Virus genome (UHGV): UHGV-0145886
DNA length: 64,000 bases
Origin: a virus
Direction: 5' to 3' (one strand)
In this document: in pieces, positions 10,649 to 55,502 of the stretch
Position numbering within the stretch: position 1 is the stretch's first letter
How the letters are laid out: each line of letters starts with the position of its first letter
The notes under the pieces: model-generated
Database searches by the model: none
Told to the model about the DNA's origin: nothing
Seen by the model: the letters and a program-made list of their open reading frames with translations, nothing else
Made by a program: the position numbers and the translations under genes

Positions 10649-11404
10649 TCAATTTTCCTCTACCTTACCTGTTATGAGTTCAGCATAAGGAAGATTTTCA
10701 ATCCAGTCACAAAATAGGTGCCACTCATCAAGCTTATGATGACGACGAGACTTGTATATATTGGCAAGCACTTCGTAGTTTAGCATTACAGTGCGGCGCT
10801 GGTTGTAAGAGGTTGGAAGCAACTGAATAAGTTGCCACCAGTATTTTTTATCTTTGGTTTCAAGAAATATCTTACGGTAATAATTTAAAGTATTAACGGT
10901 GGTTTTAAGAAGCTCTTTCCCTGATAGTCTAAAGCCGGAATCTGATTCGTCAGGCGTGCAATTATCCTCATGAGAAACTTTAAGTCCTCTTCCATCTAAT
11001 AGGTGTTCATATGAAAAATCCTCCAGCGCAAACTCCTTCGCATGAATCTTGTGCATGGTAGAACATGAATTAGCAACCGTACCTACCTTGTAAGTATCAA
11101 ATTCCTTCCACCAGTACAGAGGAGCCGTAACATCCACATATACCGTAATCATTCTCATAAACTTACGATGGTCTGTGCCAGCATTGCGAAGACGCTTCAT
11201 GAGGTCGAAGTCGTTTGGGCCGACGTTGTACGTTTTTTCTCGGGTTGTGCAATGGAATGAACTGGAACATTCGTCGCAAAAATATTCTTTATCATTTCCG
11301 CACCCGTATCCACTGTCGCTCTTCTCCCAAGAGTTCATCGGATTCCTCATACCTCTAATTGCGGCTTCCCACCCAACGATCTCTTCATTTTCAATTTCTA
11401 TCAT
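10649..11404 (-). CDS. ThyX/Thy1-like flavin-dependent thymidylate synthase-related protein
   Basis: DHRKFMRMI.V.VD..APLYWWKEFDTYK.GT..NSCSTMHK; LLP.SYNQRRT; HKLDEW. Confidence 0.75.
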   Translation of the reverse strand: MIEIENEEIVGWEAAIRGMRNPMNSWEKSDSGYGCGNDKEYFCDECSSSFHCTTREKTYNVGPNDFDLMKRLRNAGTDHRKFMRMITVYVDVTAPLYWWKEFDTYKVGTVANSCSTMHKIHAKEFALEDFSYEHLLDGRGLKVSHEDNCTPDESDSGFRLSGKELLKTTVNTLNYYRKIFLETKDKKYWWQLIQLLPTSYNQRRTVMLNYEVLANIYKSRRHHKLDEWHLFCDWIENLPYAELITGKVEEN

Positions 11405-12264
11405 TTAATCCGACCTCTTCCCTTAAAGAAATTTAAAATCTTATTTATAATCATATAAACAACTTTCAATGTAACCGCAAATGAAGGCTCTTTAATAGGG
11501 TCATCTTCCTCGTCAAGTCGATTATCATAATCCTCAATGCCGCGAGCTTCGGTAAAACTCATCGTATAAGGAAGTATAAACTTTCCGTTGAAACCCCAAT
11601 CCTCGCCCCAAGAGTTCTGACAGATGAATCCCTCTTTTATCCAACCAATAACCATAATTGCGTGTCCGCCGCAATACTCAGGTTTCTCATCGTCCGTTCT
11701 TAAAATTCCCTCCTCGTCAACATAGAAACTATAACTCCAATTCAATGCGGCGAGTACAGGTCCATAATTATAAATCGCATATTTGATTTCTGCTGGTGAA
11801 TTACAACTAAAATATCGATTAATACGATAGTAATAAGCCTTTTCCTTTTTGGAAGAGGTATTGAGTGCTTCCTCTGCACTCTGATAGCAATCTGGAATCT
11901 CAATGTTGCCGGGACAATCATCATAAACCATATCGCCATATTTCAACGCAGTCGCGCAAGCATCACGCAGATACATACCTTCTCCCGTATGTCCATAAAG
12001 AAGCTTCTGAGTACCATAGATAAAGTTAGTTGAAAGAGTTTTGTCGTCACTCTCAACATCCCCAAGGTGGGACTCCAAAATACTTGACATTGCGTGGGCA
12101 ACACAAGAATTTACCGCGCCCTGATTCTTAACAGGCACATTGACGCCAAAAACAAACTCTTCAGGAAGTGCTGCTTCAAATACAACGCCCGCCTTCAACT
12201 TGTAATCTCGTATATCTTTTTCTTCGGGCAGACATCCACCCATGGGAAATTTCTTCTCTTCCAT
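11401..12264 (-). CDS. Papain-like C1 cysteine peptidase
   Basis: NQGAVNSCVAHA, GGHAIMVIGW, QNSWGEDWG. Confidence 0.9.
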   Translation of the reverse strand: MEEKKFPMGGCLPEEKDIRDYKLKAGVVFEAALPEEFVFGVNVPVKNQGAVNSCVAHAMSSILESHLGDVESDDKTLSTNFIYGTQKLLYGHTGEGMYLRDACATALKYGDMVYDDCPGNIEIPDCYQSAEEALNTSSKKEKAYYYRINRYFSCNSPAEIKYAIYNYGPVLAALNWSYSFYVDEEGILRTDDEKPEYCGGHAIMVIGWIKEGFICQNSWGEDWGFNGKFILPYTMSFTEARGIEDYDNRLDEEDDPIKEPSFAVTLKVVYMIINKILNFFKGRGRIK

Positions 12265-12302
12265 TATAACTCTCCTATTATTTCTTTATAAAAGAAGAGA
12301 CC

Positions 12303-12479
12303 TCAACTTTCATTGTCGGTCTCACTCCAGAACTCTAAAAAATTATCATATCCTTCTTCAGAGCATATAACAATAGAAGGTACATCTTCTATACCATCCA
12401 CAACGACAGGACATCCGCTTCTGAGTTTTGACATATCTTCCTTATCAAGACGGATAAAAAGTTTGTCATATTTCCCCAT
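12303..12479 (-). CDS. Small hypothetical protein (58 aa)
   Basis: Not in the track; AGGAGG RBS; MGKYDKLFIRLDKEDMSKLRSGCPVVVDG... Confidence 0.6.
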   Translation of the reverse strand: MGKYDKLFIRLDKEDMSKLRSGCPVVVDGIEDVPSIVICSEEGYDNFLEFWSETDNES

Positions 12480-12510
12480 TATCTGTACCTCCTATAATTA
12501 TTAATTTTGT

Positions 12511-12561
12511 TTTGGGATTAGTAAAAACAGTATCGCCACGTGAAGGCTCCCAACTGATACC
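12511..12561 (-). ncRNA. Minimal HDV-like self-cleaving ribozyme (theta type) at the tRNA 3' end
   Basis: P1 GGUAUC/GAUACU with G.U at the cleavage site, P2 UUGGGA/UCCCAA, P3 GCC/GGC, L3 UUCACGU, J4/2 CUAA; starts right after the tRNA CC. Confidence 0.85.
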
Positions 12562-12646
12562 GGCACCGGCTGTCAGATTCGAACTGACGTGGAGTTTCCT
12601 CGACGGAGTCAAAGTCCGTTGGTTTCAGCCACTCACCCAAGCCGGA
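12562..12646 (-). tRNA. tRNA-Gln(UUG) with long (type II) variable arm
   Basis: Anticodon arm ACGGA-CTTTGAC-TCCGT; V-arm GAG-GAAA-CTC; T-arm GTCAG-TTCGAAT-CTGAC; acceptor (T)CCGGCT/AGCCGG(T); G73 then CC. Confidence 0.85.
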
Positions 12647-12868
12647 GTATTGTGTAGGTTTTTGTCTCTTCCCCAGATTCAAAAGACTGGTCATTATCGT
12701 TTCCGCAATTCCTTGCGCGGCACAGACCTACAAACCCTTCCGTCTTATACGGTTTTCTCCTAACTACCGAAAAATATCTTGGAGACTTTGTTTTGCTTCG
12801 TTGCCCCAAGCCTCGAAGGTTCCACGAAACAAGGTTTTCGTTTAATCAGTCTCGCGACGACTAACTGT

Positions 12869-12944
12869 TGGAGCACTCTATGTGATTTGAACACATGACC
12901 TGCTGATTACAAGGCAGCGGCTCTGCCAGCTAAGCTAAGAGTGC
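12869..12944 (-). tRNA. tRNA-Thr(UGU)
   Basis: 76 nt; acceptor GCACTCT/AGAGTGC, loop CTTGTAA, T-loop TTCAAAT, encoded CCA. Confidence 0.9.
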
Positions 12945-12948
12945 ATTA

Positions 12949-13020
12949 TGGGAGCAGGGGTGGGAGTTGAACCCACAAAAACAAGCTTATGAGGCTTATC
13001 GGTCACCGTGACTCCCTGCC
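12949..13020 (-). tRNA. tRNA with CAU anticodon (Met/fMet/Ile2) and reduced D-arm
   Basis: 72 nt; acceptor GGCAGGG/CCCTGCT, anticodon arm TAAGC-CTCATAA-GCTTG, T-arm GTGGG/CCCAC, CCA. Confidence 0.8.
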
Positions 13021-13027
13021 ATACTTA

Positions 13028-13715
13028 AACCTTGAAAAAAGCATATCTTATGGACCTTCGTCCTACCCTGCATAGTACGCAAATATATTCAGTCAAAGAG
13101 AAGATAAATCTGAGCCAATAAACCGTCGTTCATTAACTTTTTACCCTAAGAATTACTTCTACATAGCTCTTATGGGATTGGTTACCCATACCTTTCAGCA
13201 TCAATTCAGAACTTTTTATTTAAACAATTTTTCATTAAAAAGTTTAAAACATATTAATCAATACGCCGTTTTGCCTACTCGGAGCTTCCTTACAAGTCTT
13301 ATAGGTCGATTTCTCAACCGTCACAGCAGAAAGGACTTATTGGGAAGAACTGTCAGCAGAGATTAACCTCTGGGAGTTTTCTGACGCAGCAACTGCGACT
13401 CACTCCGCCAGTTCAAATTCAAGGTCTATATTGTTTCCCACACAATACCTAACTTGATTCGGCACAGGTTTTCCGTAAATCCCCTTGTGTCTCTATTACG
13501 TCCCCGACTCATATACTACCTTTATCTACATACTACTGAGCGCCGCACCTCTCGTTTTGGCTATTAACCTCCATCATAATCGTCACCTTTTATGACACAG
13601 CCGTATCCACAAGTATCCTTGCTTCGTATAATATCAACTGACTTACCGGCACGCCTCAGTGTCCGTCTGAAAACGAACTATTCACTGAGTTATAAGATAT
13701 GCTTTTTTCAAGGTT
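13028..13715 (-). ncRNA. Large ornate ncRNA, probably ROOL family
   Basis: 688 nt with no credible ORF, inside a tRNA operon, ends joined by a perfect 24-bp helix (13028-13051/13692-13715); GGGUAACCAAUCCC, GCUCAGA..UAUCUUC..GACUGAAUA and GGACGAAGGUC elements that I recall from ROOL RNAs. Confidence 0.7.
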
Positions 13716-13860
13716 CAAAGAAAGGAAAGGGTTGTTTGCTTTGCGTCTTTATATAGCGTTTCCCACTAAGCCACATATCAGTATAGTTACTGCCGGTGGT
13801 AGTTTAACAACCAAAATCCATGATAACGCTTGGTGTATCCCGCGAGGAGCGGAGTGCAGC

Positions 13861-13936
13861 TGGTAGGAGTAGCGAGATTCGAACTCGCACTGAACAGATT
13901 TTGAATCTGCTGTCTCTGCCGTTGGACTATACTCCC
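13861..13936 (-). tRNA. tRNA-Leu(CAA) with short variable loop
   Basis: 76 nt; acceptor GGGAGTA/TACTCCT, anticodon arm GCAGA-TTCAAAA-TCTGT, 5-nt V loop, A73, CCA. Confidence 0.85.
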
Positions 13937-14102: not shown

Positions 14103-14144
14103 CTTTCTATAAATATTATACAATTAATTTGGAGAAAGTTCAAA
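14103..14144 (-). promoter_or_regulatory. Sigma-A promoter driving the tRNA/ncRNA operon
   Basis: TTGAAC-17 nt-TATAAT then ATTTATAGAAAG; no ORF follows before the RNA genes. Confidence 0.75.
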
Positions 14145-25452: not shown

Positions 25453-26049
25453 TTACATTGCGCGGGCTTCATATCGAATTTTCCACGCTTCTATTATTTC
25501 GTCAAGAGTTCTTGGAGTATAATCCATCCAAGGCATCATACAACCAACGTTCATAAAATGACCTGTTGCGTAGCCGGGCGCATCATGAGAAATATCAACA
25601 ACTTCTTTTCGGAGTCCTTGAAGGTGATTCTCTTCTATCGTGTTATGAACATGGCCATAAAGCATCCAAAAATCCTCGTTATAAGCCGCACGATAGAAAG
25701 GCATGGGATAGTGACAAAGAATCACATGGCGACCATTATCTTTAATCTCAAGAAACTTTTCCTGTCCAATAAACCCACCAAGTCCACGAGTCTGTTTAGG
25801 AAGCTCTCTATCATGATTTCCCGTAATCAGAACTTTGCGTCCATTAAGTTCTGCGCCCATCTCAAGTGGGTTTACATTTTTCCAACAAAAATCTCCAAGT
25901 ATATACACGGTATCATTCTTACCAACTTTTTTATTCCATCGCTCCGTCATATCGTTCTTCATCATTTCCGTATTTGCAAACGGACGTTTGTCAAACCGTA
26001 TAATATTCTCGTGTCCAAAATGGGTGTCTGCAATATAGAAAATTGCCAT
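25453..26049 (-). CDS. Calcineurin-like metallophosphoesterase
   Basis: ADTHFGH, LGDF, GNHD, CHYP, GHVH, NVG. Confidence 0.92.
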   Translation of the reverse strand: MAIFYIADTHFGHENIIRFDKRPFANTEMMKNDMTERWNKKVGKNDTVYILGDFCWKNVNPLEMGAELNGRKVLITGNHDRELPKQTRGLGGFIGQEKFLEIKDNGRHVILCHYPMPFYRAAYNEDFWMLYGHVHNTIEENHLQGLRKEVVDISHDAPGYATGHFMNVGCMMPWMDYTPRTLDEIIEAWKIRYEARAM

Positions 26050-53864: not shown

Positions 53865-55502
53865 TTATGCAGAGTAGCAGCTACCACAGGTGCTACCAAG
53901 AGTAGGTGTAGGGCCTACTGATGTGTAAGGTGAGCAAGCAAGATATGCCGGAACGGGGCAGGGACGAAGTGCATTAATGAGAGTAGCATTCTGAGTCTGC
54001 TGAGAGAGCTGGAATCTTGCAGTTTGGAGATCACGGTCGGTATCGGCGAGTTTATCGCGGAGGGCCTGAGTTGTGTTCTCATTAATAAGCGCACGAGTCA
54101 GTGCTCCCTCATTGTGTATTGCAGTCGTAATCTCGCAAGTGTTTTTGTAGTTCTCTGCTCTGACGTTATCCACGTTGCGGTTGATCTCGCAGCAGCAGTT
54201 CTGTTGGGCGAATCTGTTGTCAGCAAGTGCGGACTGGACGCCGAAGAAACCATCCTTTAGACTGTTATTGGTTGCATAGAAACCATCACAGATTCCATTG
54301 GTAATTCCGCGCAGTTGGCTGTTGATGTCTTGATTGTTGAAGCCTTCGAAGAGATCGGAGCGGGTAAGGGCACCCTGCATCGCAGCATCTCCATTGCGGT
54401 TCCAACCATTAGCGCCGAACATCCACATCCAGACGAGATAAATAAACTTTATGTTACGAAGTAATCGTTTCCATTACTTCTCTTTATATCACTATAAAGA
54501 ACAGACTATATCTTCTTCTCCATTGAGAAGCCTTGCGCTTCCATTTAAGGGAATTTTACCCGTTCACTTGAGCCGTACTCCTATTGCCGTATTTCACGGC
54601 TTAGCTATTATTTTATTTAAGGATGATTAATAGCATCAGGATAGTCGTTGAACCTTTCATCTTTTGATGACTTGGCTGCTGATTGTCTTTATAAGAGTTC
54701 CCAGCAATTCACAAGGTATCATTTAAGCATCACTGCTTAAAGCCCCATTATTTACCATTTGTAGAGTAATATAATCTTTACTTGTTTGCTTTTTGGAAAA
54801 GTCATGATACTGTTTTAGCACTTCATAATCTTTTCGATAAATCCACTGATAACCTCTATATGAAAAGTGCTTTCTACCATCATATTCTTTTCCTCTCCAA
54901 AAGTTTAGACATTTTAGAACCGATGAAGTACCACCATCTACGCTCTTCGCGGCAGCAATGCTACTTTCATAAGTACCAACTATTTCGCCTTGTGCATTTA
55001 ATTGAAGAATATAATCGATAAAGCGTGGTGCTTCTTTGCCTTTTACGCCATACATTGGATTGTCCTCGCCATTTTGGCTACTTCCTCCAGTGTTTTGATT
55101 AAACCCTTTTTTATAGCTATCAAAAAGATTAATATAAAAAATTTCTCTTTCATCGAGCTTGCTTTTAGGACACTGTTCTAAAATTTCATAAACAAAGCTA
55201 TCTTCACCATATTTGTCATAGGTTCTCTGCATATGTTTATTATAATGCACACCCTGCTTTAATTCTCTTCTATGGGTTGCCCAACGACGAGAGATAGCAG
55301 TACTTTGTCCTATATAAACTTCTTGAGTGGCTAAACAAGTAATTTTATAAATGCCAGTCATTTTCCTCACCTCATAAAACAAGTGGGAAAATGATGAACA
55401 AACTCTAAAAATTTAGGTCTTTTGTTTAGGATTGTTCATCCAGTTGTTCTCATCGTTCTTTGATAGGGCCATTACATCTGCTGCAGATAATCCATCTGTC
55501 AT
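53865..55502 (-). CDS. Intron-split gene (exon 1 55428-55502, exon 2 53865-54446), conserved Cys-rich coiled-coil phage protein
   Basis: GGAGG RBS; spliced frame MTDGLSAADVMALSKNDENNWMNNP|FIYLVWMWMFG...AQQNCCCE...LSQQTQN...LRPCPVPAY. Confidence 0.85.
54447..55427 (-). mobile_element. Group I intron (IA-like), 981 nt, with homing endonuclease in the P1 loop
   Basis: Exon ends U, intron ends G; P AAUUGCUGGGAA, Q AAUCAGCAG, R GUUCAACGACUA, S AAGAUAUAGUC; P3 CCUUGUG/CGCAAGG; P7 GACUA/UAGUC; IGS UGGGG pairs UCCU|A; P10 GGUAAAUAA/UUAUUUAUC. Confidence 0.92.
54723..55361 (-). CDS. GIY-YIG homing endonuclease with NUMOD-type C-terminal domains
   Basis: MTGIYKIT...VYIGQS...RRW..H; ERE..YI; GEDNPMYG; GAGGTGAGG RBS. 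Confidence 0.9.
   Translation of the reverse strand: MTGIYKITCLATQEVYIGQSTAISRRWATHRRELKQGVHYNKHMQRTYDKYGEDSFVYEILEQCPKSKLDEREIFYINLFDSYKKGFNQNTGGSSQNGEDNPMYGVKGKEAPRFIDYILQLNAQGEIVGTYESSIAAAKSVDGGTSSVLKCLNFWRGKEYDGRKHFSYRGYQWIYRKDYEVLKQYHDFSKKQTSKDYITLQMVNNGALSSDA

Follow-up and report, generated by a model that had tools for sequence, protein, structure and literature searches.

The 64,000-nucleotide stretch of DNA analysed here, which we call the window, comes from the virus genome UHGV-0145886. Its genes (Pol III alpha, gyrase, NrdD, an amidase with CW_7 repeats, and tail genes) are those of a tailed phage, and the CW_7 amidase together with the Shine-Dalgarno sites suggests a host among the Bacillota. 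A contig from one of the sisters bears the title human gut metagenome, the best-matching sequencing runs are from wastewater, and six RNA runs contain 0.09-0.19 of the sampled words. Coding densities of 0.884 (code 11), 0.909 (code 15) and 0.905 (code 4) indicate the standard code. Recoding under code 15 with an amber suppressor was considered and rejected, as the gain from code 15 is under the 5-10% given in PMC10879173 and no suppressor is found among the four tRNAs of the window; in this phage, which is not recoded, TAG terminates one of the 39 minus-strand ORFs of at least 150 aa. Elsewhere in the window a group I intron (54482-54772, minus strand, Rfam 93 bits) overlaps a GIY-YIG endonuclease ORF (54723-55382, minus strand).

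The features of interest lie in and downstream of a cluster of non-coding RNA genes (Table 1). Three of the four tRNAs, those called Thr, Met and Leu, encode CCA and carry no ribozyme fold, and on this point descriptor and sequence agree with the original prediction. The tRNA called Leu from its CAA anticodon has a short variable loop, which is unusual for leucine tRNAs, and the amino acid that it is charged with is uncertain. The tRNA-Met(CAU)-like gene may be a pseudogene; its D arm is shrunken, its discriminator is C73, and it scores a low 32 bits against Rfam. Between tRNA-Thr and tRNA-Gln is a non-coding spacer of 222 nt (12647-12868, minus strand) that has several hairpins and is up to 97-98% conserved in the sister loci described below; it has no Rfam match and weak folding z-scores. 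ROOL RNAs are often found near phage tRNA islands (PMC12286853), and the one in this cluster carries an insertion of about 70 nt. Sisters have lost ROOL, tRNA-Met, tRNA-Thr and the spacer in varying combinations, while the Leu and Gln tRNAs stay, and contigs in runs X2 and X5 skip 12651-13717. The presence of ROOL does not track with that of the ribozyme among the sisters.

Table 1. Features at and around the tRNA-Gln locus, with the metallophosphoesterase considered in connection with end healing.
Feature	Position	Strand	Basis
Papain-family (C1) peptidase, in both allele types	11401..12264	-	Pfam PF00112, E 2.8e-14
Segment of ribozyme, leader, ORF58 and spacer; in CCA-type sisters replaced by A76 and a spacer of ~30 nt	12265..12561	-	Sister comparison
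ORF58, 58 aa, always inherited with the ribozyme	12303..12479	-	10/10 ribozyme sisters, 0/14 CCA sisters
Minimal HDV-like (theta-type) ribozyme fold, 50 nt, predicted cut 5' of G12561	12512..12561	-	Descriptor, covariation, near-identical published read
Predicted catalytic cytosine (C75 equivalent), first base of J4/2	12521	-	Descriptor
Encoded C74-C75 between G73 and cut site	12562..12563	-	Sequence; contigs of runs X2, X3
tRNA-Gln(UUG), long variable arm, U1.U72 mismatch, G73	12564..12646	-	ARAGORN 12562-12646; Rfam tRNA 50.7 bits
tRNA-Thr(UGU)	12869..12944	-	Encoded CCA
tRNA-Met(CAU)-like	12949..13020	-	Encoded CCA
ROOL RNA in the same non-coding RNA cluster	13033..13713	-	Rfam RF03087, 276 bits
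tRNA with CAA anticodon (called Leu)	13861..13936	-	Encoded CCA
Repeated phage promoter-like motif, likely transcript start	14106..14143	-	9 copies vs 0.02 expected; sigma-70-like site
Calcineurin-like metallophosphoesterase, possible but unlinked end-healing enzyme	25453..26049	-	Pfam; PHROG 547

A theta-type fold with a U.U in P1.1

The original prediction was of a theta-like HDV fold fused to the 3' end of a minus-strand tRNA, and every element was found at the position claimed. Read along the minus strand, tRNA-Gln ends in G73 at 12564, followed by C74 and C75 at 12563 and 12562. P1 then pairs 12561-12556 with 12534-12529 (6 bp, the G12561.U12529 wobble and five Watson-Crick pairs), J1/2 is 2 nt long, P2 pairs 12553-12548 with 12517-12512 (6 bp), and P3 pairs 12547-12545 with 12537-12535 (3 bp) around a 7-nt L3. 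P1.1 has one standard pair only, C12542-G12528, adjoining the unpaired U12543 and U12527 (a U.U). The P4 helix is absent, with six unpaired bases leading from the P1.1 G to the catalytic C. The order of the nested double pseudoknot (P1/P1.1/P2/P3) is that of HDV, and the predicted features of this order, a G.U at the cut site, no P4 and a candidate C12521 are all borne out by the descriptor fold. An HDV-like ribozyme must have a P1 of at least 6 bp opened by G1 (PMC8495972), and here G12561 opens a P1 of 6 bp with the G.U at the cut site. Two features of theta ribozymes, the minimal form without P4 and a cut within 5 nt of the tRNA 3' end, are both present, the predicted cut being 2 nt past G73.

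The HDV-like descriptor search proposed in the original prediction, run on both strands of the 64 kb, gave 12561-12512 as its sole match; with A, G or T required in place of the catalytic C it gave no match at all. We considered the possibility that this match is a chance sequence with no catalytic role. No Rfam ribozyme family matches the RNA, whether at the gathering score or at E values up to 10, and the folding z-score of the region is only 0.21, in a simple model that leaves pseudoknots out. Against chance, a slightly looser descriptor gave seven matches in 1,693 dinucleotide shuffles of the window, or about 0.004 per window, and the fold sits exactly at the end of a tRNA. The fold is also conserved and has a near-identical catalogued read, and among 26 same-length U.U-type members two-sided changes occur in 12 of the 17 pairs, with a covariation score of 0.73 compared to 0.18 for shuffled and at most 0.14 for slid alignments, although these members were picked by descriptor and the pairing is thus partly by construction. 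The equivalent of C12521 is invariant in alignment A2, whose members had been selected for that C. We regard a chance match as next to impossible. On the evidence of the sequence, the 50 nt behind tRNA-Gln are a real theta-type ribozyme fold, and a variant that apparently lies outside the published motif.

Theta ribozymes have been described as tRNA-associated minimal HDV-like ribozymes of gut Caudoviricetes (Kienbeck et al. 2024, PMC10879173). Four of them cleave in vitro, a C-to-U change abolishing cleavage; CCA is encoded in 4.5% of the theta-linked tRNAs, and in 77% the cut lies no more than 1 nt from the predicted end (PMC10879173). The window RNA shares with them the nested double pseudoknot without P4, a G1 at the tRNA 3' end, the C-U-A-A junction, the P1 and P3/L3 sequences of catalogued members, a tRNA lacking the full CCA, and a tailed phage as its source. 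It differs in its P2 of 6 bp, its cut after CC, the standard code and the lack of any suppressor tRNA found, and above all in P1.1, where the window has C-G and U.U while every row inspected in the published table has two pairable positions. From these rows the published theta motif appears to require two P1.1 pairs, and the refined theta search motif, which is the operational definition of that paper, does not match the window ribozyme, with its U opposite U. The exact window sequence has no match in the supplementary tables of PMC10879173 that were searched, and four U.U-type motifs have none in the published tRNA-linked table, where a two-pair control has 14. A singleton read in Supplementary Data 2 of the same paper departs from the sister allele at one base, with G in place of U in P1.1. 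The assignment to the theta class thus holds for the minimal fold and the position at the tRNA end, whereas the U.U apparently places the RNA outside the published motif, and by sequence it is better called a theta variant than a strict member.

A U.U in P1.1 is nonetheless compatible with activity, to judge from relatives, because the CPEB3 HDV-like ribozyme (PMC4836649) and the Ackermannviridae HDV-like ribozyme (PMC13635239) both have U.U at this place and are active, the latter fast. In CPEB3, C. briggsae and Ackermannviridae ribozymes alike, P1.1 is made of one standard and one pyrimidine-pyrimidine pair, and the ribozymes are active (PMC4836649, PMC13635239). Those of CPEB3 and C. briggsae differ from the window RNA in having a P4 helix, and the Ackermannviridae RNA is described as retaining these elements; the term "tRNA" appears nowhere in the available text of PMC13635239. 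The drz-Mtgn-1 type of minimal HDV-like ribozyme, as presented in PMC10879173, resembles the window RNA in lacking P4, in its size of about 50 nt and in its phage origin, but has a P1.1 of two pairs and is not described as tRNA-linked in the available text.

The U.U core is not peculiar to this phage. We surveyed IMG/VR with patterns restricted to a standard T arm and to two types of P3, taking the matches without correction for relatedness; among the matches listed, 157 of 311 sequences had a tRNA arm and the full fold, giving 100 unique tRNA-ribozyme pairs. The U.U type accounts for 49 of these 100, seemingly missed by the published motif, and the theta family may therefore be much larger than catalogued. 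Our literature search, which covered few subscription journals, found no paper on the U.U subtype or on the discriminator rule described below. U.U-type theta ribozymes also stand behind tRNAs in seven GTDB contigs (L414, L416, L417 and L419-L422), titled Melainabacteria, Gastranaerophilales, Oscillospiraceae, Clostridium, Eubacterium, Bacteroidales and unnamed bacterium; these are possibly phage contigs inside bins.

Cut offset and the discriminator base

With N73 placed from the T arm, the distance from tRNA to cut site follows the discriminator. Among the IMG/VR matches listed, the cut comes directly after the discriminator in 45 of 48 pairs with A73, and for U73 directly in 11 of 33 and after an added C in 15 of 33; seven further U73 pairs from 15 GTDB loci comprise two direct and five with C. 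For G73 we ran two complete targeted IMG/VR scans (loci analysed, 29 of 29 and 83 of 84), yielding 35 unique pairs. The cut follows G73-C in 27 of them, is direct in five, follows AC in one and falls at -1 in two, which are probably misregistered. The reactivity of HDV ribozymes with the nucleotide at -1 is reported as A>C>U, with G poor (PMC8495972), and the offsets run parallel to this preference. The relationship is a strong tendency, with the five direct G73 pairs as exceptions; a C is frequent after U73 as well. An absolute rule, that G never stands at -1, was suggested by a first sample (0 of 18 direct among the matches listed) and was abandoned upon the five direct cases of the targeted scans. 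Fisher p-values take no account of relatedness and were given no weight.

The theta paper attributes offsets of 1-5 nt to error in tRNA prediction (PMC10879173). We suggest instead that the encoded C74 in most G73 tRNAs would keep the poorly cleaved G off position -1, although C74 may also be what is left of a CCA, or may assist another enzyme. The rule should be useful wherever tRNA ends are made with HDV ribozymes. A different arrangement is seen in tRNA-Cys, where four of the five pairs among the matches listed (L024, L205, L270 and L142) have the full CCA, with the theta cut 1-2 nt beyond it.

Alternative endings of one tRNA gene

Using the peptidase as a query, we collected 27 related loci, of which 24 have the tRNA-Gln and three do not. 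In 14 of the 24, G73 is followed by CCA and there is neither ribozyme nor ORF58; in the other ten, G73-C is followed by the ribozyme and ORF58. CCA and ribozyme are thus mutually exclusive in 24 of 24 loci, none having both or neither, although several of these loci are duplicates and the two clades amount to one evolutionary contrast. The tRNA-Gln is 99-100% identical across the sister loci of both clades, and tRNA and ribozyme show 97-100% conservation from one clade to the other, compared to about 75% identity for the peptidases. Since each of these sisters has on this tRNA either the ribozyme or CCA, the ribozyme would seem to be a dispensable alternative to an encoded CCA.

The flanking genes, by trees of the deaminase and the peptidase, put the window in the CCA clade, and yet it has kept the cassette. 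A recent gain from the other clade was considered, but the window's ORF58 is as divergent as the peptidase (76-77% identity to nine of the ten ribozyme sisters). It is 97% identical to that of L316 alone, which is itself a mosaic. Given this divergence, retention of the cassette in the window and later loss in the CCA sisters looks at least as likely as gain. The spacer of the CCA alleles aligns about equally well with the ORF58 leader and with the peptidase leader. The sister ribozymes of L329 and L330 (around 2694-2750) have a short tandem duplication at J4/2-P2, and with it two candidate catalytic Cs.

The original prediction had the tRNA ending in CC before the ribozyme. This is so in the window and is not the norm of the lineage, all ten ribozyme sisters ending in G73-C. 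The CC end occurs in one of the 100 survey pairs among the matches listed and in none of the 35 G73 pairs of the targeted scans, which disposes of the idea that CC is a conserved design. Assembly error was likewise rejected: contigs of runs X2 and X3 span the junction without gaps and differ only outside the element. With the CC allele present in at least two other public assemblies, CC is a rare but real allele. With the extra C, the acceptor 3' strand is repeated in tandem at the junction, perfectly over 6 nt, and for this reason slippage suggests itself as the origin of the CC end.

The second C may be costly. In a model of nested pairs only, the slipped acceptor, at -24.4 versus -25.4 kcal/mol, comes within 1 kcal/mol of the native one, and the slipped pairing has a probability of 0.62 in the window compared to 0.00 in L317, which has the one-C allele. 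The slipped acceptor stem takes G1 and G2 from P1, the modelled pairing of which is 0.03 in the window and 0.56 in the one-C allele, again for nested pairs with pseudoknot and modifications left out. A slipped stem is thus predicted to weaken cleavage of the CC allele, and since P2 is also one pair shorter (6 bp, compared to 7 bp in the ten sisters), the window allele may be slower than the one-C allele. A C at -2 is moreover reported as poor for HDV cleavage (PMC8495972).

Taken further, these figures would describe a weakened or decaying ribozyme, in which the extra C pairs the tRNA 5' strand with G73-C-C-G1-G2 and blocks P1, host nucleases do most of the 3' trimming, and the locus is en route to the CCA-only state of the sisters. 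The placement of the window with the CCA clade in both gene trees fits such decay, as do the slipped stem and the shorter P2. We think it possible but unlikely. The bases of the catalytic core are all intact, the allele recurs in other assemblies, and the tRNA presumably folds before the ribozyme is synthesised, with L-shaped stacking that lies outside the model. A broader reading joins several of these observations: the lineage would be moving from G73-C with ribozyme, by way of G73-CC with ribozyme as in the window, to CCA with ribozyme and ORF58 deleted; the spacing would be a tuned code set by the discriminator and no prediction error; and CC would be a folding switch, its slipped stem holding the ribozyme off until the tRNA folds and so linking what becomes of the downstream mRNA to the release of the tRNA. 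As a whole we find this quite doubtful.

A single ribozyme of this sort would by itself be an ordinary example of the kind described in 2024. What this work adds is one tRNA in matched CCA, C and CC alleles, along with a spacer that depends on the discriminator. That theta ribozymes have a role in maturing tRNAs has so far been proposed from their position and from cleavage in vitro, and natural alleles of one tRNA that end in CCA, in C plus ribozyme or in CC plus ribozyme make that role directly testable.

The acceptor stem and G73 of this U1.U72, long-variable-arm tRNA-Gln are the same as in L388 and L409, and one pair off in L204. L388 and L409 are amber-suppressor tRNAs with theta ribozymes in other phages, a hint that tRNA-Gln(UUG) and the suppressors share ancestry.

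End healing and the downstream message

The explanation that we favour, with a probability of roughly 0.7, is that the 50-nt HDV-like fold cuts itself off between 12562 and 12561 and that the resulting tRNA, ending in CC-cyclic-phosphate, is healed and completed with A by host enzymes. Transcription would begin at the promoter motif near 14110 and run through the tRNA/ROOL cluster; the tRNA would fold, and the ribozyme would then cut 5' of G12561 in a Mg2+- and C12521-dependent manner, releasing tRNA-Gln with its CC-cyclic-phosphate end. Host enzymes, for example an HD-domain CCA-adding enzyme, would remove the cyclic phosphate and add the A. The second C of the window would be an uncommon product of slippage, with a probable cost in cleavage rate.

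The products of HDV chemistry end in a 2',3'-cyclic phosphate and a 5'-OH (PMC8495972), from which we infer that the tRNA 3' end would need both healing and completion of its tail. A tRNA with a cyclic phosphate cannot be charged until healed, and tRNA released by HDV needed T4 PNK in vitro (PMC12381190). Those engineered tRNA-HDV fusions follow the scheme predicted for the window, with a 3' end formed by the ribozyme and a cyclic phosphate that has to go before the tRNA can be charged; they differ in having the whole CCA in the gene and T4 PNK provided, while the window tRNA would need A76 added and no PNK was found. The HD domain of the E. coli CCA enzyme removes cyclic phosphates (PMC6961547). 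We scanned five sister genomes (89-97% complete, about 95-103 kb) for PolyA_pol, AAA_33, the DRB0094 ligase, HD, RtcB and RNA_ligase, and there was no match in any of the five, with controls that worked; healing would thus have to be done by host enzymes. Among theta phages, by comparison, 20.6% have a CCA enzyme and 54.5% a DRB0094 ligase (PMC10879173).

The phage does encode a calcineurin-like metallophosphoesterase, and this superfamily can open 2',3'-cyclic phosphates (PMC2190708). Together with the requirement for T4 PNK in vitro (PMC12381190), this raises the idea that cleavage is a timer, the tRNA being parked as an unchargeable cyclic phosphate until a healing enzyme appears. The metallophosphoesterase is 13 kb away, however, and occurs in all five sister genomes, of both allele types, so that it does not track with the ribozyme; and since the Gln(UUG) tRNA duplicates a host tRNA in a phage of standard code, there is no code switch to time. 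We consider a timer very improbable, and prefer healing by the host.

The genes downstream invite a different question, whether the cut serves the message. A 15-nt promoter-like motif has nine copies in the window, all on the minus strand (508, 10615, 14106, 14574, 16188, 24955, 26074, 33494 and 50776). A scan for sigma-70 promoters and terminators performed at chance level. Because one copy lies at 14120-14106 and the next at 10629-10615, with none in between, a single transcript is probable, one that starts with the first tRNA and takes in the ribozyme, ORF58, the C1 peptidase and the gene behind it. Co-transcription of tRNA-Gln with these downstream genes is at least plausible from the sequence. 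ORF58 begins 33 nt past P2, and its frame stays open at about 77% DNA identity; it has no family or Atlas match and two homologues, neither of them named.

It is conceivable, then, that the ribozyme mainly serves to give the ORF58 mRNA a defined, structured 5'-OH end, tRNA trimming being incidental. The two go together in the window and in ten of ten sisters and are both absent in 14 of 14, ORF58 starts close behind P2, and the promoter motif is absent between 14106 and 10629. The same fold, however, stands at the ends of many types of tRNA with offsets tied to the discriminator base, and where the ribozyme is lost a CCA is encoded. In Bacillus, the 5'-OH product of the glmS ribozyme is degraded by RNase J1 rather than protected, which also speaks against a benefit to the message. 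We judge this improbable, and continue to regard maturation of the tRNA as the more probable function. The original prediction had the cut release the downstream mRNA as well; the peptidase and the gene after it do not depend on the ribozyme for this, since the 14 ribozyme-free sisters keep the peptidase behind a tRNA ending in CCA.

The C1 peptidase that had been expected downstream is confirmed by its Pfam match. The gene after it (11404-10649), originally taken for ThyX-like, has no match in Pfam, NCBIfam or the PDB, and the sole lead to its identity comes from the ESM Atlas, through a cluster with Thy1 in 10% of its members.
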